A stretch of DNA of 64,000 nt. Origin: a phage. A program made the translations under genes and the position numbers. Below are positions 8,580 to 28,506 of the stretch, one piece after another. The stretch's first letter is position 1; each line of letters begins with the position of its first letter. The notes under the pieces are model-generated. The model worked only from the letters and a program-made list of their open reading frames with translations. It searched no databases and had not been told where the DNA came from. The stretch lies in sequence record PV636258.1. The stretch is one strand, 5' to 3'.

Positions 8580-10511
8580 TTATAATATCATCAAATCCTC
8601 AACCCATGTTCCTGGGCTACCTCCAATCTGACATACCCAACCCTTCAGCAGACAATCAGCCAGCTTTCCAAGCGCGGTAATGTTACGCGATACCACTGTT
8701 GGATTTTTTTTAGCGATATAAGAGCCTGTTGACCAGGTTATATTCCCGTAGTATGCAGGCTCTGTTTGCGGGTTGACATCGCCAACACCCACGTCGCGAC
8801 CAAGTGCAGAAATAGTTCGTTCTATTTCGCCATATTGTAAACTATAGCGTACATGGGTTGGCCCGTTCGCTGCATTAAGAAATACTTTCCCGGCCCCGCA
8901 CATACCAGACAGTGATATCAGTTGCTGATTGCCTGGATAGACGCTGTAAAGGTTGCCATCCGTGAAATTCGCTTGCACCAGGGATGTCCCGTTTTGTGTG
9001 ATCGCGGGTAGGTTATAAGCAAAGTACGACGCCGACGCTTTTTGATCTGCAGTCAGATACGCGGTATTGCCTGTCACGACGAGCGAATTTGATTTATCAC
9101 CCGATGCACCTATATCCAGGTACTGGCCCGTCATAAGCTCAAGTGTATTGTCTGCAAAAGTAAATCCTGACACGCCACCGATTATTACTACACCGTTTTG
9201 AGAACCCTCAATGCAGCATTCAGTGACTGACGAATATGTTACGCATTGCCCAGTAGCTGTTGCTCGTGCGAAATCCCAACCGCGTTCAAACACAACCTTT
9301 GACAATCTGACATCAAACCACTGCCCCGCATCAAGCGCATAGCCTTGAGGAGAGCGGATTATCTTTGTGCCAGTAAGGTATAAAGTTTGCAACCAATTGT
9401 TTGATTTAGCTACTAACAGTCCATTTACAGTGCCCCCATTGAACAGAACACGAATCAACTTCTGACCGTTAATAATGTATGTAACTTTTGATGTATCCTT
9501 CTGCGAAAAGTTAGTGCCTACAAACTCAATATTACCAGAAGCATTATCGGCTTCAGTTGATGAGAATACATATTGTTGACCATTTGCTACTATCTCACCA
9601 CCGATAAATGACACAAATTTTTCAGGTACAGAAGTATCAAGGTTGTTTACATTTACTGTTCCATCAATGCGGATAGTGCCATTGATGTAAACTGGTGGTC
9701 GTATTTTACCTGACACCATCCCATCGACACATCTTTGCATAGCTTCTGTATTGTCGAAGTCTCCGTATCTACCACCTGACAAATAAGCAAAATCGTTATG
9801 TGGATTTATACGCTTCCACCTTTTCCCATTGGTGGTCACAATCACCAATGTACCGTCATCCGCAGATGTTGTGTCGTTAGGGTCATAATAAAAAGCACCA
9901 GCACCAGATTTACCAGCATCACTATCATTATAGCGATTAACCATTATCTGCTGGTTTGGTGTCGATGGCTCAATCGACCTAAGCCCTTCTACGCTTGAGT
10001 ACCCTATGTATTTGAAGCCGTCTTCTTTTGAAAGTTCACTACGTAGAGAAACATCTCCAACACTAACCCACGCACCTAAACCAACACCACCCGTTGTTGC
10101 TGGGGTTGAACCAGGAGCAACGGTTTTAGGGAATGCACCATTCCAACGATATAGACTCACCCCATCGCTCACGACTTCGTTCTTGACACGAATCGTAAAT
10201 CCAGAAGTAAAATTTTCAACAAGAGTAACATACTCTTCCCTTAACACAGCCAATGCACCCAAATCTACGGTGCCTCCAGAGTGCGTGAGGATGCCGTCGA
10301 CCAAACTGGTGACCGTTACAGCACCAATGTTAGAAGGGAGAGCGTAGGCACGTTGAGACAACTTATCGTAGATCACTTTATAACCAGACAATGACTGTCC
10401 CGCTTTGGCATAAACGACTTCCGACTTTTTACACCCAAATTTACGGGCAATACTATCTTTGTTCGATTCTTTTGAAGTAGAACCTTTTGGTTGAGCAAAT
10501 TGCGGATTCAT
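8580..10511 (-). CDS. Tailspike-like protein (643 aa), beta-helix receptor-binding type
   Basis: N-terminal about 130 aa (ARKFGCKKSEVVYAKAGQSLSGYKVIYDK...GGVGLGAWVSVGD) shared with ORFs 12859-14985 and 15089-18592; C-terminal Gly/Asn/Thr-rich repeats typical of right-handed beta-helix. Confidence 0.65.
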   Translation of the reverse strand: MNPQFAQPKGSTSKESNKDSIARKFGCKKSEVVYAKAGQSLSGYKVIYDKLSQRAYALPSNIGAVTVTSLVDGILTHSGGTVDLGALAVLREEYVTLVENFTSGFTIRVKNEVVSDGVSLYRWNGAFPKTVAPGSTPATTGGVGLGAWVSVGDVSLRSELSKEDGFKYIGYSSVEGLRSIEPSTPNQQIMVNRYNDSDAGKSGAGAFYYDPNDTTSADDGTLVIVTTNGKRWKRINPHNDFAYLSGGRYGDFDNTEAMQRCVDGMVSGKIRPPVYINGTIRIDGTVNVNNLDTSVPEKFVSFIGGEIVANGQQYVFSSTEADNASGNIEFVGTNFSQKDTSKVTYIINGQKLIRVLFNGGTVNGLLVAKSNNWLQTLYLTGTKIIRSPQGYALDAGQWFDVRLSKVVFERGWDFARATATGQCVTYSSVTECCIEGSQNGVVIIGGVSGFTFADNTLELMTGQYLDIGASGDKSNSLVVTGNTAYLTADQKASASYFAYNLPAITQNGTSLVQANFTDGNLYSVYPGNQQLISLSGMCGAGKVFLNAANGPTHVRYSLQYGEIERTISALGRDVGVGDVNPQTEPAYYGNITWSTGSYIAKKNPTVVSRNITALGKLADCLLKGWVCQIGGSPGTWVEDLMIL

Positions 10512-22814: not shown

Positions 22815-23384
22815 ATGCACATTAACACAGCAATCATGAAACACATTATTCCTTTATTGGCAAAATACGAAGGGGAACGTGCCACGAAAATCCCTTTTGG
22901 AACAATCACAGATGAAGTGAAACGCCTGACGGGTAAAAGTATCAATTTCCGTCGCGTTGTTGAATCTGCGTTAGAGTTGGCCCGTTCTGATTTACAAAAT
23001 CCAACATTTTCATTTAATATTGACGTAACTTCTTCACTTCGTCAAGAATTGGAAGAATCATCACAAGCGCGGCGCGATCGTTTCCGTCATTTATATGTTC
23101 GTAACGAATTCTCCGAAGGTCGTGTTGGTATGAAACTGGAGTCTATTCGTTCTGATATTTGCTTCACTGTCAACTATGTTTTAGAGCCAGAGAGCCAGCG
23201 CATTTATTTTGGCGCGATTATCGGTTTCTATGGGAACTCTATTAATGGTTGGGCAGAACGTGTTGGATTAAAAGAAACCCAGAACAATCATTCCACACCT
23301 TCTACCCATTATATGACGCATGAAGCTGCTGGCGAATATGTTTACCTTCTGCGTCGTGTTGTGAAGTTAGAAGTGTTAAAATAA
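22815..23384 (+). CDS. Hypothetical protein (189 aa)
   Basis: ATG-initiated ORF downstream of promoter-like element; no recognisable motif. Confidence 0.55.
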   Translation: MHINTAIMKHIIPLLAKYEGERATKIPFGTITDEVKRLTGKSINFRRVVESALELARSDLQNPTFSFNIDVTSSLRQELEESSQARRDRFRHLYVRNEFSEGRVGMKLESIRSDICFTVNYVLEPESQRIYFGAIIGFYGNSINGWAERVGLKETQNNHSTPSTHYMTHEAAGEYVYLLRRVVKLEVLK

Positions 23385-23441
23385 CGCTTTATTCAATAAA
23401 TAATTGTAGTAAAGTTAGTTGCATGGAAGGGAGGGAACACT

Positions 23442-23588
23442 ATGTTTTACATGATGTTACTCCTCATCCTCCTGATCGGGATTACCTGCTCTCTCCTGGG
23501 TCTACCCGATCAGTCCGGTAAACAGTTGCCCACTTCGGCGCATCCGGTTTTGAGTGAAGGTTCGTCCGCACTGCTGTGGGCAGTGTAG
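23442..23588 (+). CDS. Small hydrophobic peptide (48 aa), speculative
   Basis: ATG with GGAGGG SD 7 nt upstream; MFYMMLLLILLIGITCSLLGL predicted transmembrane; below the ORF-track length cutoff. Confidence 0.3.
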   Translation: MFYMMLLLILLIGITCSLLGLPDQSGKQLPTSAHPVLSEGSSALLWAV

Positions 23589-24409
23589 CTCAAAGGGGAG
23601 AGGACTTTTCAAATTAGCTGGGCTGTAGTATAGTAAATTTTATGGTGTAAAGAGTCGGGCGACCAGCGGTGTAAAGGCTGAGGCCAAGCACAGTCCTAGG
23701 ACGAGGACTCCGGCTCCATAAGTCAATATCCACCTCGCTGGTGTCAGTGGACGCACTTGACCGTCGGAGAACGAAACTCCCTGTTGTAGCGTGATTAGCT
23801 CAGAATCAGAGAGCACCCCGTTGGCAAGTCGACACCAGCATATAAGGGGAGGTCGGGGGCGCTAATCTCCATCACGCCGACAACATTATGAGTCTTCATA
23901 GAGGGTTCATAATGTTGCGTCAAAGGGCAACAAGGTTCCTGTTGGTAACATAATTATTCCTACTGTCTTCCCGGATTTTAGGAGCGCCAACAGGCGAGGC
24001 CGGATGCGTAAGTTCCGGCAAATCGATGGTGAGGTGGTGCATTGGTGACACGGGGTAGCGCCCAGAAGTGTGGTTCGATTCACACCCTCTCCAACAAAAA
24101 TAAAAGGTTTTATCAATAACGGGTTACAAAGTATAGTTAACTCACTGAACGGCAAGCTGTTTGAGTCCTGGCCACTCATAGCGATGTGAGACCAAGACAG
24201 GTAGGTTTAGGACTCAAACAGGTTTTCGTTCTCGTTGCTTGCGACTTTGCGGGTTTTTAGAAACTGACCACAAAGATAAATGCAAACGATAACACGTTCC
24301 TGGCAGTAGCTTAACAGCCATACACCAGTGAGGTCTTCCGATTCCTCATCACCAAATTCGGCGCACTAAAATAGACGGGAGGGTGTGATTAATAATCTCC
24401 CGTCGACGA

Positions 24410-24536
24410 TGCCGTTATATCTGACTGTCCAAAGGGGATAAGCTCCTGAGTAAGCAGAGGTGGGTTGCCTAAGTCAGATGGGATGTAAGGTCAGCGCTGG
24501 CCAAGCATTTGGGTTCGACTCCCTAAAACGGCTCCA
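24410..24536 (+). ncRNA. Extended tRNA-like element (about 127 nt): acceptor-like stem, T-arm-like hairpin and 3-prime CCA
   Basis: 5-prime GCCGTTA pairs 6/7 with AAACGGC placed directly after a GGG-TTCGACT-CCC T-arm; followed by T then CCA; body far too long for a canonical tRNA. Confidence 0.25.
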
Positions 24537-24623
24537 CATCTTAGAGGACATTGACAGGTGGAAGCATTTGGCGCCAAATGCTCGTGGCGGGTTCGAGTCC
24601 CGTGCAGTGTCCTCTAAGATGTG
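24535..24623. repeat. 16-bp perfect inverted repeat enclosing a tRNA-like core
   Basis: CACATCTTAGAGGACA (24535-24550) and TGTCCTCTAAGATGTG (24608-24623); interior holds 18-nt perfect palindrome GCATTTGGCGCCAAATGC and T-arm-like GCGGG-TTCGAGT-CCCGT. Confidence 0.7.
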
Positions 24624-24668
24624 AGCGAAGTCTTACCAATTGCCCTGATCTCTGGCAAGTGAAGGGCA

Positions 24669-24804
24669 ACGCAAATCGAAGTTCTCTGGGTATATCTTTT
24701 AACCCTCAAGGTCTGTACACAGAAGTGGCCGTCCCATGAGTAAGTTAGGCGATATACAACATGTTGGGTCGAACCTGTTAAGCCCAGAGAACTTCGATTT
24801 GCGT
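24669..24804. repeat. 22-bp perfect inverted repeat enclosing about 92 nt
   Basis: ACGCAAATCGAAGTTCTCTGGG (24669-24690) and its reverse complement at 24783-24804; nested 7-bp stem GTATATC/GATATAC inside. Confidence 0.7.
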
Positions 24805-25183
24805 ACTTGAGAGAGCGTTGTATGAAATAGGGCAATGCCTTGCAGACCTCGACGCCTACACATTCTAGACACTGGTGGGCGCTGGCGAAGATCTCAATAT
24901 AAGCTGGTCATCAAGGGTAGCTCCCTGACTAGACGAACAATGAGAGGCCGAACTAAGGGGAAACCCGAGACAGGCGCAGTATTTTCGAGTTCGCAAAACA
25001 GTGATCATCTGACAAGTGTGATCACTCTTCGATAGAGACATTACATCGTGGCCATCAACCACATCCTCGCTCTAGTGATGAGTGGTGTTATGTTTCTGTC
25101 GGCCAGCCTCGTTTGGTCCGAGCGATAGAGGACAAGTATTCTGTGTGACGAAGACATTGAATGCGAGTTGTAACATTTGGTTG

Positions 25184-25261
25184 CAACTTTGATGGCTCTG
25201 GATTTTATAAACCATGTCTATGGGTGACGCGGGATCTTTAGTACCAGAGCCATCAAAGTTG
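25184..25261. repeat. 18-bp perfect inverted repeat with 42-nt interior
   Basis: CAACTTTGATGGCTCTGG (25184-25201) and CCAGAGCCATCAAAGTTG (25244-25261). Confidence 0.7.
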
Positions 25262-25592
25262 TGTCCAACCCGATCTTGCAAGCCCGTATCCCTGTATGGT
25301 CAAGACTTGCAAGTGGAAAGCCCTGGAAAAATAAACGCCTGTGGTGAGGCTACGGTGCAAGCCAAAGACCCACAGAAGCGCGTTGCCGTGAGGCGCACAA
25401 ACAGGCATGCATGAACTGATCATGCACAAACGGGATAAAGGGTTGAGAGACCTTGGTTGGTCACAACATACAATTAATCCATAACGGGGAAGCAATATGA
25501 CTTGGCGACAGCGCGGATACAAAACCGTAGAATTGATTTAAAATTGCCGGCGTCCTGGTTGAGTGAGAGATCACTGCCGAAACCAGGAGGAA

Positions 25593-25618
25593 TGTGGGAG
25601 GGTAAATACCCTCCCACA
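25593..25618 (+). promoter_or_regulatory. Hairpin with TAAATA loop upstream of tRNA-Met
   Basis: TGTGGGAGGG-TAAATA-CCCTCCCACA; a second 11-bp inverted repeat CATATATGTTT/AAACATATATG (25628-25665) abuts the tRNA 5-prime end. Confidence 0.4.
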
Positions 25619-25664
25619 GACCAAGAACATATATGTTTGTGTATTTTTGTGCATAAACATATAT

Positions 25665-25741
25665 GGTCCTGTAGCTCAGTGGTAAGTAGCAGTGAACTCA
25701 TAATTCATTGGTCGTTGGTTCAAATCCAACCAGGATCACCA
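25665..25741 (+). tRNA. tRNA-Met (anticodon CAT; could also be an Ile-lysidine or initiator type)
   Basis: Hand-folded cloverleaf: acceptor GGTCCTG/CAGGATC (one G-T), anticodon stem GTGAA/TTCAT with loop CTCATAA, T-arm GTTGG-TTCAAAT-CCAAC, encoded CCA. Confidence 0.8.
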
Positions 25742-25778
25742 CTAAATAAACCAGTTGTTCAATAAACAATTGGTGAGT

Positions 25779-25979
25779 ATGATGAAAACGTTCGGTGATT
25801 TTCTTACTGAGTGGGATGGTCTAGCTACCGACAACAAAGAGATTGTTGAGTTTGTTGAAAAGCGAGGCGATAAGTGGGTTGTCCTTGACCACACCAAGAC
25901 TAAAGTTCTTGGGACACATGACACCAAAGCTGACGCCGACGCCCAATTAAGGGCGATCGAAGCGAACAAGCACGGATAA
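25779..25979 (+). CDS. Small hypothetical protein between tRNA genes (66 aa)
   Basis: ATG with GGTGAG SD; lies between tRNA-Met and tRNA-Asn. Confidence 0.4.
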   Translation: MMKTFGDFLTEWDGLATDNKEIVEFVEKRGDKWVVLDHTKTKVLGTHDTKADADAQLRAIEANKHG

Positions 25980-25980
25980 A

Positions 25981-26056
25981 GACGATGTAGTTCAGTCGGT
26001 AGAACGGCGGTCTGTTAAACCGTATGTCGCAGGTTCAAGTCCTGCCATCGTCGCCA
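25981..26056 (+). tRNA. tRNA-Asn (anticodon GTT)
   Basis: Acceptor GACGATG/CATCGTC, D-arm GTTC-AGTCGGTA-GAAC, anticodon loop CTGTTAA, T-arm GCAGG-TTCAAGT-CCTGC, encoded CCA. Confidence 0.85.
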
Positions 26057-26076
26057 AATAATAGTTGCAGGAACAC

Positions 26077-26568
26077 ATGAACACAAAACAGCGCGGGATG
26101 ATAGGTGAAACGAGGTTCCTGTTTAAATGTACAGAACTCGGGATCACAGTTTCACAACCTTTCGGAGATAATGCGCCATATGATTTTGTGATTGATGTGA
26201 ACGGTCGTTTGCTCAAGGTGCAATGTAAAACCTTGATGATGGACAAGAATACCTACCTTCTTGACGCAAGCACGACTAATTTCTACAACGGAAAATGCAA
26301 ATCCGTATACCATGGTGAGAAAGTTGATCTCTATTATGGTTACCATCCTGAAACTGGGATTGAAGTTTTGGTAGATCCGAAGCAATACCCTAAAAATTTA
26401 CGTTTGAGGGTGGAACCACCTAAAAATAATCAGGTGGTTGGGATCAAGTGGTTAAAGGATTTCCTGTTTGATAATGTTATCCAGGAAATTATGAATTATG
26501 GGTGTGAAACGAAAGCAAGTAAGCACGAAGTACGCGAACGACAAGTTCTCTCGAGCGACGTCCAATAG
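26077..26568 (+). CDS. Putative PD-(D/E)xK-family nuclease embedded in the tRNA cluster
   Basis: GETRF...PYDFVIDVNG...KVQCK pattern (E, D, D, Q-x-K) matching the restriction-endonuclease-like fold; AGGA SD before ATG at 26077. Confidence 0.45.
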   Translation: MNTKQRGMIGETRFLFKCTELGITVSQPFGDNAPYDFVIDVNGRLLKVQCKTLMMDKNTYLLDASTTNFYNGKCKSVYHGEKVDLYYGYHPETGIEVLVDPKQYPKNLRLRVEPPKNNQVVGIKWLKDFLFDNVIQEIMNYGCETKASKHEVRERQVLSSDVQ

Positions 26569-26569
26569 C

Positions 26570-27018
26570 CGAACGGAATCCGAACCCGACGAAAGTAACG
26601 CCCACCAAATTCAGAGTGTAGAGGCTACAGTAGTGCGCACCTCACGGAAAGCTACACCGGACACTCTGATACAAAATCTACCACCGCGTGGATTAGCTGA
26701 GGAAGGATGGCCGATGTCCTCAAGCGTGGCCCAGCACGTGGTGGTAGACCAAACACAGTAAGCGTTGCAGCCAGCTGTGTATAAAATGGGGTGACTCCAC
26801 ATCGGAAACGATGCCCCAACTTCCAGAAATGGTCGGGCGTGAAGCCTGTAAAGTTCCAGGAGATCAGACCAGAAGGCACTGGTCGCCTTGTTAACCAATC
26901 GACGCTTCGGCGTGGGGAGTTGGACAGGCAGATCAAATGCACAATCGGGTGTGAAGCCCGTCCATATTACGCTCGGTCAAGCAGTCTGTTTGTAGACGGT
27001 CGGTGCGGGTTTTGCAAG
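26570..27018 (+). ncRNA. Highly structured non-coding segment (candidate structured RNA)
   Basis: No RBS-supported ORF; multiple stable hairpins including UUCG loop (GACGC-TTCG-GCGTC region near 26905), GAAA loop (CATCG-GAAA-CGATG near 26795), 8-bp and 12-bp inverted repeats (26612-26669, 26689-26750). Confidence 0.35.
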
Positions 27019-27104
27019 ACTCGTTTAGGCTAACAAATGGATGAGGCGCGACTCTCTGGGTTGATCACCAGAGTGCTGGGGTTCAAATCCTCTAACGAGC
27101 ACCA
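27019..27104 (+). ncRNA. Atypical tRNA-like element (possible pseudo-tRNA or processed stable RNA)
   Basis: Clean 3-prime half: hairpin CTCTGG-GTTGATCA-CCAGAG, T-arm with TTCAAAT loop, 7-nt acceptor strand, ACCA; but 5-prime half does not give a canonical D-arm and the anticodon-like loop has 8 nt. Confidence 0.3.
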
Positions 27105-27110
27105 AACAAC

Positions 27111-27194
27111 GTGAGTGTGGCAGAGCGGTCGAATGCAGGAGACTGTAAATCTCCCCGTAACAGCGCGGTGGTTCAAATCCATCCACTCACACCA
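27111..27194 (+). tRNA. tRNA-Tyr (anticodon GTA), long variable arm
   Basis: Acceptor GTGAGTG/CACTCAC, 3-bp D-stem, anticodon stem GGAGA/TCTCC with loop CTGTAAA, long variable arm, T-arm GGTGG-TTCAAAT-CCATC, encoded CCA. Confidence 0.85.
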
Positions 27195-27270
27195 ATAAGT
27201 CGTTTCGGTCAGGTCAAGAACCCAGATTTAGGTCATGGCTTGGAAAATTCTTGACCGAAGCGCAGTATAC

Positions 27271-27359
27271 GGAAGGTTGCCCGAGAGGTTTAAGGGACTC
27301 GACTGCTAATCGAGTGGGGCTTTTAGCCCCCGAAGGTTCGAATCCTTCACCTTCCGCCA
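27271..27359 (+). tRNA. tRNA-Ser (anticodon GCT), long variable arm
   Basis: Acceptor GGAAGGT/ACCTTCC, anticodon stem CTCGA/TCGAG loop CTGCTAA, variable-arm hairpin GGGGC-TTTTA-GCCCC, T-arm GAAGG-TTCGAAT-CCTTC, encoded CCA. Confidence 0.85.
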
Positions 27360-27362
27360 AAT

Positions 27363-27448
27363 TGCTTCATAGCTCGAGTGGTAGAGCGCAGGAAAGTTTC
27401 GAGAGAACAAGGTGCCTGAGGTCACTGGTTCGAATCCAGTTGAAGCAA
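27363..27448 (+). ncRNA. tRNA-like gene with canonical acceptor, D and T arms but a 22-nt anticodon-region loop
   Basis: Acceptor TGCTTCA/TGAAGCA, D-arm GCTC-GAGTGGTA-GAGC, T-arm ACTGG-TTCGAAT-CCAGT all perfect; anticodon arm is a 4-bp stem CAGG/CCTG around 22 nt; no encoded CCA. Confidence 0.4.
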
Positions 27449-27458
27449 TCAGAATAAT

Positions 27459-27613
27459 GAGTGTGACTTCCTGAAGATGAAGAAGGTGTGCATGCCGACT
27501 TCATAACAATCTGGGGTTAAGGAAGTTAAGAAAGTCGCAGGATATGCAAGTGAAATGCAAATAGCTTTCAACGTCCTGACGATTTCGGGTTCGATTCCCG
27601 ACGCACTCTCCCA
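27459..27613 (+). ncRNA. Candidate stable RNA with tRNA-like ends (about 150 nt)
   Basis: GAGTGTG at 27459-27465 pairs (one G-T) with CGCACTC placed directly after T-arm TCGGG-TTCGATT-CCCGA; followed by T and CCCA; lies between the last tRNA-like gene and the terminator at 27674. Confidence 0.25.
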
Positions 27614-27673
27614 AACGCCTAATACCAGAAATTGCTGTGAGTAGTCTTTCCATCCCCACGATGGTTTAACCAT

Positions 27674-27704
27674 AGCCCGATCAGGAAGATCGGGCTTCTT
27701 TTTG
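27674..27704 (+). terminator. Intrinsic terminator closing the tRNA/stable-RNA cluster
   Basis: AGCCCGATC-AGGAA-GATCGGGCT hairpin followed by TCTTTTTG. Confidence 0.7.
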
Positions 27705-27743
27705 TCTATAATAAATAGATCTGACTTGTAAAGGAGGTCTATT

Positions 27744-27980
27744 ATGGCAACTGCTAAGATCATACCAAACGCAAGTACATGGACACAAGTCTCAGACGGA
27801 ACATCTTTGAAAACTCTTCAAGTGACTCACGGTTCTGTGTATTTAACCGATAACCCAACTGCGCCAGCCGCCAACGCCCCTGCGCATATCATTCTACAAG
27901 GAAATATCATTGTCTTGACTCCTCCTACAGTTGGATGGATAAAGAGCGCTAGTGGTGTTCCTGTTGTGATATTATCATAA
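27744..27980 (+). CDS. Small hypothetical protein (78 aa)
   Basis: ATG with strong AAGGAGG SD. Confidence 0.5.
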   Translation: MATAKIIPNASTWTQVSDGTSLKTLQVTHGSVYLTDNPTAPAANAPAHIILQGNIIVLTPPTVGWIKSASGVPVVILS

Positions 27981-27990
27981 GGAGAGGGAT

Positions 27991-28506
27991 ATGCCCATAT
28001 TAACCTTTCCAATTATGGGAAATATGTTTCAGACCAAACGCGTGAAAAGTGAAGTTCGGTTTACTGGTCTGTCTCTCAATATCCCAACAGGTACAACAGG
28101 AGTCGATTTATTATCGTTATTTGTTGGAAAAACTCCTGTTGCTGGTTCTACAACAATGGCACCGTTCTTTGATTTGTCTGCTAACAAATTCAAAGTCTTT
28201 AATAATGATTCAACTGTCACATTGAAAATAAATTTGATAGGATCATGGCAAGGGACCACCAATAACCGAACATTAGAAATAAATTTTGTTGGGTCGGTGG
28301 GGAACCAATTAACAAAAAGTCGAGACGCTGCATTAACAGGTCAAGATATTTTATCATTTCCTACATTCTTTAGTGTTGACAAGAATGGGAATTTAGCGAC
28401 AAATGGGAGTCAAATTATTGCCAGATCTTATGGTAATGATTTTACTATCACGGAAGCTATTTTCATCGCAGAACAAATGGTCCCGTTATACATGAATTCT
28501 ATTTAA
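27991..28506 (+). CDS. Hypothetical protein (171 aa)
   Basis: ATG with AAGGAGAGGG SD; beta-rich Thr/Asn/Gly sequence. Confidence 0.55.
   Translation: MPILTFPIMGNMFQTKRVKSEVRFTGLSLNIPTGTTGVDLLSLFVGKTPVAGSTTMAPFFDLSANKFKVFNNDSTVTLKINLIGSWQGTTNNRTLEINFVGSVGNQLTKSRDAALTGQDILSFPTFFSVDKNGNLATNGSQIIARSYGNDFTITEAIFIAEQMVPLYMNSI

Follow-up and report, generated by a model that had tools for sequence, protein, structure and literature searches.

A noncoding array of tRNAs and tRNA-like elements

The DNA under study is a 64,000-nucleotide (nt) stretch of phage sequence record PV636258.1 (the window), which derives from a Kuttervirus (Ackermannviridae), a ViI-like Salmonella phage, and which contains at about positions 23600-27705 an array of tRNAs and oversize tRNA-like elements. 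The region 23500-28000 is 98% identical to the corresponding DNA of phages PM10, Chennai, and SM5, and matches to it were found in 366 GenBank phage records. The array consists of roughly 4 kb of noncoding DNA, and the only solid open reading frames (ORFs) inside it are a phrog_3684 ORF and a PDDEXK_5 ORF. In relatives, it is flanked on one side by the gene for a conserved 189-amino acid protein and on the other by a small late gene followed by the tail needle knob gene. Credible annotation of the array is almost absent from these relatives: a few tRNAs are marked, a "tRNA-OTHER" appears now and then, and some records list numerous tiny or implausible ORFs.

An earlier inspection of the letters alone (the sequence-only reading) had folded four canonical tRNAs by hand and had listed four additional elements with an acceptor-type helix and a T arm that were too long or had an abnormal core. 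The four tRNAs were borne out by both ARAGORN and the Rfam tRNA model RF00005 (gathering score, 29 bits), which scored them at 56-76 bits. The tRNAs and the four additional elements, designated E1, E5x, E6, and E7, are located as follows.

25665-25741, + strand: tRNA-Met (CAU); ARAGORN, RF00005 63 bits; CCA encoded
25981-26056, + strand: tRNA-Asn (GUU); ARAGORN, RF00005 75.8 bits; CCA encoded
27111-27194, + strand: tRNA-Tyr (GUA); ARAGORN, RF00005 57.3 bits; CCA encoded
27271-27359, + strand: tRNA-Ser (GCU); ARAGORN, RF00005 56 bits; CCA encoded
24411-24536, + strand: E1, tRNA-like RNA of 126 nt; the minimum-energy fold is a four-way junction
26971-27104, + strand: E5x, tRNA-like RNA of 134 nt; defined by alignment A2, RNAalifold, and pair counts
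27363-27448, + strand: E6, in which acceptor, D arm, and T arm are of the tRNA-Ile type and another arm stands in for the anticodon arm; detected with Rfam
27459-27613, + strand: E7, tRNA-like RNA of 155 nt; defined by alignment A1 of 16 variants and RNAalifold

The 64-kb window was scanned for T arms with strict settings (a 5-bp stem with at least four pairs, G53/C61, and a TTCRANN loop). Ten sites were obtained on the + strand, nine of which lie within the 3.1 kb from 24509 to 27601, and five of these nine fall outside the tRNAs. Elsewhere in the window, only three weak sites were present on both strands together. The extra T arms, which are far beyond chance expectation, are therefore real and strongly clustered. 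The full tRNA model did not match E1, E5x, or E7 at E values up to 10; another arm sits at the position of the anticodon arm in E1 and E7, and the D arm is absent from E5x.

Comparative structures of E7 and E5x

E7 has homologues in Kuttervirus, Agtrevirus, and Taipeivirus (236 phage records), and no record annotates the element as an RNA. Alignment A1, with 16 distinct variants from the three genera plus CRW-SP2 and 158 columns, yielded an RNAalifold consensus fold that is a cloverleaf-like four-way junction with a 7-bp acceptor. Arm 1 (27467-27527) has an invariant outer helix, ACUUCC/GGAAGU, and an inner hairpin that covaries, and arm 2 (27533-27584) is a stem that covaries and ends in the invariant hairpin GAAAUGC-AAAUA-GCUUUC. 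All seven acceptor pairs and all five T-stem pairs are formed, the T loop is UUCGAYU, and the U-CCCA tail is almost invariant; the acceptor, the perfect T arm, and the tail thus match what had been described for 27459-27613 from the sequence alone. Across the alignment, 97.5% of the cells were paired, versus ∼45% in slid controls in which pairing was recounted after moving the partners by 1-3 alignment columns. Compensatory changes were observed at 14 of the 40 pairs, versus 1-3 in the slid controls. A scan of IMG/VR with an invariant E7 20-mer returned only eight loci, mostly the same isolate genomes, and the useful diversity came from GenBank phages.

The element corresponding to E5x had previously been placed at 27019-27104. 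Its T arm, its hairpin, and its ACCA end stood, as did the statement that it has an 8-nt anticodon-like loop (here on a 6-bp stem) and no D arm, but its 5' boundary did not: the CTCGTTT segment that had been assigned as the 5' acceptor strand is not kept in phages cp16, MK-13, PhaxI, and S118. The conserved partner of the 3' strand AACGAGC is instead GCUCGGU at 26971, and the unit is therefore 134 nt long, with 27019-27104 as its 3' part. In the divergent form found in CBA6, both acceptor strands are changed and pairing is kept. The consensus fold comprises the acceptor GCUCGGU/AACGAGC, a long branched arm, a hairpin, a 4-bp T arm, and an A-CCA tail, with six of seven pairs in the acceptor and four of five in the T stem; the hairpin, CUCUGG-GUUGAUCA-CCAGAG, is invariant. 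In the E5x alignment, 95.7% of the cells were paired (37-51% in slid controls), and 13 of 41 pairs showed compensatory changes (1-6 in slid controls). E5x is present in 120 phage records and annotated in none; these include Limestonevirus, where its 3' end is disrupted.

Conservation of E1 and the replaced arm of E6

E1 is composed of the acceptor GCCGUU(A)/AAACGGC (6/7 pairs), a 62-nt arm, a 30-nt arm, a T arm at 24509-24525 (4/5 pairs), and a U-CCA tail, in agreement with the acceptor-type helix, the T arm, and the tail that had been noted for 24410-24536. It occurs in 199 phage records and is 96-100% identical across genera, including Taipeivirus, where its flanks are only 74-83% identical. 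Because of this near identity, most relatives are uninformative about E1 pairing. The copy in phage MK-13, at 84% identity, has compensatory changes in the acceptor and in both arms: U5-A68 is replaced by C5-G68, AUCUGA/UCAGAU by ACCUGA/UCAGGU, and GAUG/CAUU by GGUG/CACU.

E6 was the only oversize element to exceed the RF00005 threshold, at 48.7 bits, with 22 nt skipped at the anticodon loop; the sequence-only reading had likewise described a 22-nt loop in the anticodon region of 27363-27448. Its acceptor (7/7) and T stem (5/5) are fully paired, and its replacement arm is a 4-bp stem with a 22-nt loop, CAGG-ARAGYUUCGARAGAACAAGGUG-CCUG. Some Kutterviruses (PS5 and phage 241) have a normal tRNA-Ile(GAU) at about the E6 position, after the last tRNAs of the cluster and before the late genes. 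The acceptor, D arm, and T arm are common to E6 and the PS5 tRNA-Ile(GAU), and E6 is therefore a tRNA-Ile body with its anticodon arm swapped. Two Schitoviridae (N4-like) phages, VLCpiP4b and pSb-1, retain the replaced arm, with 91-93% identity. In the Klebsiella phage VLCpiP4b, the E6-type RNA lies directly 3' of tRNA-Gln and ends in ACCA; in the Shigella phage pSb-1, it has an unrelated acceptor helix in which pairing is retained. The retention of this arm in Schitoviridae rules out E6 as a random pseudogene. Databases label E6 as "tRNA-OTHER" in PM10, ST-W77, Det7, PhaxI, and GG32 and as tRNA-Leu(aag) in Sajous1 and SilasIsHot. Calls such as "tRNA-OTHER", "tRNA-Undet", or pseudo-tRNA imply a defective tRNA, whereas the E6 arm is conserved in both Ackermannviridae and Schitoviridae.

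These results bear on two ways of dismissing the elements, both of which the sequence-only reading had left standing. If they were decaying, functionless pseudo-tRNAs, the "tRNA-OTHER" label of E6 and the loss of its encoded CCA (A-UCA) would be accounted for, as would the degenerate nature of E0, an element at 24024-24099 (see below) that is present in some genomes and absent from others. Decay does not account for conservation above that of the flanks, for helices kept via compensatory substitutions, or for the retention of the replaced E6 arm in another phage family. The covariation data already contradict decay for E1, E5x, E6, and E7, for which we regard it as very improbable and reject it; it may hold for 24024-24099. 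The second proposal was that of tRNAs carrying short insertions, that is, interrupted genes from which functional tRNAs would arise once the inserts had been spliced out. ARAGORN in its relaxed intron mode, a check that had been recommended, does propose introns in 27362-27450 and in two other places. These calls conflict with one another and with the database labels (Pro, Ser, and Leu), and they were not used. No intron family, group I included, was detected with Rfam in 23000-28500 at E values up to 10, the inserts are just 22-100 nt long, and the anticodon stem-loop is missing after removal of any of them. Whole arms are replaced and the 7-nt anticodon loop is gone, so the insertion proposal is unsupported, and we consider splicing to functional tRNAs to be extremely unlikely.

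A proposed tRNA-like handle with non-tRNA arms

RNase P and the 3'-end enzymes recognize a tRNA by its acceptor helix, stacked on the T arm, together with a CCA-type tail. E1, E5x, and E7 keep only this enzyme-read part, a 7-bp acceptor on a T arm with a CCA-type tail, and have larger arms with conserved loops in place of the D and anticodon arms; E6 replaces the anticodon arm only. Because none of them has a 7-nt anticodon loop, the E elements are predicted to be incapable of decoding codons. On balance, we think it probable that the oversize elements are genuine non-decoding tRNA-like RNA genes within the ∼4-kb array and that tRNA enzymes would release them as stable RNAs. According to this proposal, the array would be transcribed from sigma-70-like promoters to the terminator at 27674-27705, and host RNase P along with the 3' trimming and CCA enzymes would excise each unit, as with T4 species 1 RNA. 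In each unit, the tRNA-like half would serve as a handle for processing and stability, and the work would be done by the conserved arms, which would bind a host or phage partner. Comparable use of a tRNA-shaped module to recruit RNase P and the 3'-end enzymes and to stabilize a non-tRNA cargo occurs in engineered tRNA-scaffold RNAs, in the tRNA-microRNA chimeras of murine gammaherpesvirus 68 (MHV68), and in mascRNA. Unlike the phage array, these examples are eukaryotic, viral, or synthetic.

Several observations weigh against this interpretation. For Ackermannviridae phages, literature searches turned up neither expression data nor mapped RNA ends. Folded as single sequences, E1 and E6 reach only modest z-scores (-1.0 and -1.05, respectively), and variation in these two elements is so slight that the case for each depends on one or two divergent relatives. 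E1 and E5x form only four good pairs in the T stem, the tail of E7 (U-CCCA) is not a clean NCCA, and the tail of E6 in Kuttervirus is A-UCA rather than A-CCA. The division into a handle and a payload is itself suggested by which parts are conserved.

The closest known parallel is found in phage T4, whose stable small RNAs species 1 (rnaC, 139 nt) and species 2 (rnaD, 119 nt) are of still unknown function (PMC3014915, PMC9697503). The T4 rnaD and rnaC genes follow directly after the last T4 tRNA, at the distal end of the tRNA cluster, a position like that of the elements in the present array. Like E7, E5x, and E1, rnaC is encoded inside a phage tRNA cluster and folds into a four-way junction, its long arm and its hairpin lying between an acceptor-type stem and a perfect T arm; rnaD, unlike the E elements, has no T arm. 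The array described here has at least four RNAs of this kind with different payload arms, plus further modules. A covariance model built from E7 (R1) gave no match on T4 rnaC (locus L025, 1409-1547), and its only T4 match, of 13.2 bits at L025 1673-1801, covers tRNA-Arg and adjacent sequence outside rnaC. Common descent of E7 and rnaC is therefore not shown, and the likeness would be one of architecture. The best-supported assignment of the four E elements is to the T4 species 1 type, of which they would form a new variant with several payloads. Of the options offered by the sequence-only reading, the one that fits best is that of small stable RNAs which, as in T4, pass through the tRNA machinery. 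It is favored by conservation across Kuttervirus, Agtrevirus, and Taipeivirus (and, for one element, across two phage families), by the compensatory changes, by the spacing of 3-10 nt from adjacent tRNAs, and by the rnaC-like architecture.

To our knowledge, the two stable RNAs of T4 have had no known function for fifty years, in part since they were taken for an oddity of one phage. In the window, the same design of an acceptor/T-arm handle with non-tRNA arms is seen several times, each case conserved and covarying in well over 100 unannotated genomes, and one RNA type is common to two phage families. These elements provide comparative data to define the constrained parts and offer deletable genes in phages used for biocontrol of Salmonella, E. 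coli O157, and Klebsiella. A ∼4-kb stretch that is left blank or filled with tiny spurious ORFs in many records is dense in structured RNA, including the tag-template RNA described below.

A different role for the same architecture is that the tRNA mimicry is itself functional, with the RNAs acting as decoys or sponges for proteins that bind the tRNA elbow or acceptor (anticodon nucleases, SmpB, EF-Tu, and modification or CCA enzymes), thereby protecting phage or host tRNAs or disabling a host pathway. Within the elements, it is the acceptor and the T arm that vary least, and E6 keeps a full tRNA-Ile body while changing only the arm that anticodon nucleases cut. Precedents exist as well: mycobacteriophage DS6A carries the tRNA-like domain of transfer-messenger RNA (tmRNA) alone, a fragment proposed to titrate SmpB (PMC4131195), and counter-defence by phage tRNAs is an established idea (PMC10264068). 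A pure decoy would have no need of three different, individually conserved payload arms with invariant loops, however; the D arm, which shapes the elbow of a tRNA, is missing from E1, E5x, and E7, and neither a defence system nor a binding partner was identified from the sequence. We therefore view mimicry as an unlikely primary function and favor the handle-and-payload interpretation.

A tmRNA-like tag template upstream of E1

An additional RNA, designated TM RNA, was located just upstream of E1.

24221-24407 (24144-24407 with its leader), + strand: TM RNA, core; resembles the mRNA-like domain of tmRNA

Its tag frame (24282-24314) reads GCA AAC GAU AAC ACG UUC CUG GCA GUA GCU UAA, encoding ANDNTFLAVA*, and is preceded by AUAAAU. 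As in the resume region of tmRNA, there is an alanine resume codon, no start codon, and a hydrophobic tail of the ...AA type. All 47 distinct copies of TM possess ten codons plus TAA, with the consensus AN[DE]xxx[LMRK][AMV][AV]A. The entropies of the three codon positions in these copies are 0.58, 0.48, and 1.01, making third positions twice as variable, and codons 1, 2, 3, and 10 vary at the third position only. This pattern indicates that the tag frame is under selection at the level of the peptide. The RNA has a helix around the stop codon, an H-type pseudoknot, and a 3' hairpin (24374-24404), all of which covary; 92.8% of the cells are paired, and 16 of 22 pairs show compensatory changes.

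The TM unit, 165-190 nt in length, was found in unannotated DNA of Ackermannviridae, Ounavirinae, Schitoviridae, and 47-kb Klebsiella and Salmonella siphoviruses. Non-mobilizable plasmids of ∼90-120 kb that appear to be phage-plasmids, P1-like ones among them, carry it too, and of 5426 E. coli genomes, 689 contain it. The unit is often in or beside tRNA clusters. In P1-type phage-plasmids (a P1-like IncY plasmid, L033, 2001-2184), it follows a terminator downstream of the dam methyltransferase gene, lies ∼300 nt upstream of tRNA-Asn and tRNA-Thr, and has the tag ANDDLMMVAA.

No tRNA-like domain (G3-U70 with a CCA end, in one-piece or permuted form) was found in TM, and ARAGORN with default settings never calls it. 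The Rfam permuted-tmRNA model aligns to TM with its 92-nt tRNA-like-domain insert missing, and TM scores below the gathering score of every Rfam tmRNA model: 22.5 of 47 bits for RF04321, 14.1 of 84 for RF01850, and 23.7 of 50 for RF01849 (the last on locus L031). TM belongs to no Rfam family and is not mentioned in the literature searched; searches for Ackermannviridae noncoding RNAs or transcriptomes, tmRNA-like RNAs, and tag peptides likewise gave nothing relevant. A one-piece tmRNA spanning 24156-24536, which ARAGORN proposes in relaxed mode (-ps80) by pairing a 5' strand GCUGUUU with the 3' strand of E1, was rejected: GCUGUUU belongs to a conserved 13-bp leader hairpin, phage EspM4VN keeps the leader without E1, and phage Magnus has 850 nt between the two. 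We conclude that TM cannot work by the textbook tmRNA mechanism.

The E elements have their own resemblance to tmRNA, the tRNA-like domain of which is an acceptor stem and T arm with a CCA end and no anticodon arm. E1, E5x, and E7 differ from it in that the alanine identity elements G3-U70/A73 are absent and two extra arms replace the single P2 helix, and Rfam tmRNA models match E-type elements at the T loop only (10.5 bits). One or more of the acceptor/T-arm RNAs could nevertheless be the acceptor piece of a split phage trans-translation system in which TM is the coding piece, such that infected cells would tag proteins with a phage-specified peptide. In its favor, TM has a tag under peptide-level selection and yet no tRNA-like domain, and at 26 of the 47 TM loci a T arm that is not part of a tRNA follows within 600 nt; tmRNAs in two pieces are found in bacteria and marine phages (PMC9004378). 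Set against it, 17 of the 47 loci have no T arm nearby, EspM4VN has TM without E1, and Magnus separates TM and E1 as noted above. None of E1, E5x, and E7 has G3-U70 together with A73; only the CRW-SP2 version of E7 has G3-U70, but with U73. Conserved complementarity to TM was not found in these RNAs, and pairing of TM RNA with E. coli ssrA, evaluated by RNAduplex against shuffles, gave no signal (z, -1.1 to +1.2). We judge a split system built from TM and these RNAs to be very unlikely. A wider version, in which TM is delivered either by an acceptor/T-arm RNA or by a hijacked host tRNA-like domain and the other RNAs form a horizontally exchanged toolkit of tRNA-scaffolded effectors, is doubtful as well, if slightly less so; it would mean that an effector RNA toolkit is common to unrelated enterobacterial phages.

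Other modules and organization of the array

In addition to TM RNA (24221-24407), three elements of the array were absent from the sequence-only reading.

24537-24621, + strand: E2; 14-bp closing helix (24537-24550 with 24608-24621), palindromic hairpin, and T arm at 24587-24603
26500-26607, + strand: M1, 108 nt; acceptor-type helix GGGUGU/ACGCCC and A-CCA tail, without a canonical T arm
24024-24099, + strand: E0, tRNA-sized insertion with a degenerate tRNA shape; 8-nt T loop and truncated anticodon arm

E2 has a folding z-score of -3.7 and scores 15.9 bits against the mascRNA family, for which the gathering score is 42.5. Its closing helix is constant in relatives and its interior is swapped, being a 10-nt loop in A221 and cp16 and an unrelated 100-nt cargo in MK-13, Sajous1, PhaxI, S118, and Magnus. 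M1 is conserved in all Ackermannviridae genera examined, Limestonevirus included, and starts ∼6 nt after tRNA-Asn where the endonuclease ORF (see below) is absent. E0, with a folding z-score of -0.25, is absent from Magnus and EspM4VN and is probably a pseudo-tRNA. In phage Maynard, a coverage map suggests that about the same position as that of E0 is taken by an RNA of 148 nt (L008, 2047-2194), in which the acceptor has 7 bp and the T arm is perfect.

The remaining features of the array are the following.

23606-23634: sigma-70-like promoter, TTTTCA-17-TATAGT
24110-24137, + strand: sigma-70-like promoter, TTATCA-16-TATAGT, upstream of the TM leader and conserved in relatives
26077-26568, + strand: free-standing PD-(D/E)XK homing-endonuclease-type ORF between tRNA-Asn and M1; PF11645 (PDDEXK_5), E = 7e-25
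27674-27705, + strand: intrinsic terminator closing the array, 9-bp stem (27674-27696) followed by a T run

The terminator at 27674 is the one strong intrinsic terminator on the + strand, and a weaker terminator-like match is located at 25067-25085. The spacers between units of the array are 3-10 nt, as in tRNA clusters. The segment 26498-27106 is made up of modules that vary in order or presence between genomes, with tRNAs inserted at module boundaries. The PDDEXK_5 ORF is present in some relatives and absent from ST-W77, Magnus, and others, and in Maynard, Sajous1, and Bullseye, HNH endonuclease genes are found at other places in the array.

This variability could be taken to mean that the modules are cassettes at the level of DNA, for instance small mobile elements or sites of recombination or homing, and that their RNA folding is incidental; module order varies, constant closing helices flank swapped cargos, and homing endonuclease genes (PDDEXK_5 and HNH) are found within the array. 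The compensatory changes include G-U intermediates, and the helices are all on one strand with a consistent T-loop and CCA polarity, features that point to selection at the RNA level. Mobility and RNA function are also compatible with one another. We therefore hold a DNA-only explanation to be highly improbable and retain the interpretation of the modules as RNA genes.

Other parts of the array were also conserved. Between 26607 and 26970, noncoding blocks are 85-98% identical across genera, exceeding the conservation of neighboring protein genes. They are built of long-stem hairpins (e.g., 26611-26668 and 26677-26749), the order of which is rearranged in Magnus and cp16. The segment 23606-24023, downstream of a promoter-like site, is conserved and has no credible ORF; it may hold further RNA modules. 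Two long, near-perfect inverted repeats at 24671-24803 and 25169-25280 have ∼20-bp stems with interiors of 90 nt and 27 nt, respectively, and may be RNase III-type processing stems. Their Rfam matches were only to microRNA precursors, and such microRNA matches, like those to plastid untranslated regions, were spurious, arising from long hairpins or from the reverse strand of tRNAs. A conserved 65-amino acid ORF (phrog_3684) lies between tRNA-Met and tRNA-Asn at 25782-25979 and has no Pfam domain; the label "RNA ligase" given to its homologue in one GenBank record was unsupported by our searches.

Oversize T-arm RNAs are not limited to the Ackermannviridae. Oversize or noncanonical T-arm RNAs that are not called by ARAGORN were observed in 47-54-kb siphoviruses, Felixounavirus-type phages, and the Klebsiella phage Magnus (L040, 12244-12351; L032, 1911-1992; L049, ∼9815-9886; and L004, 2305-2440), some of them directly after TM RNA.

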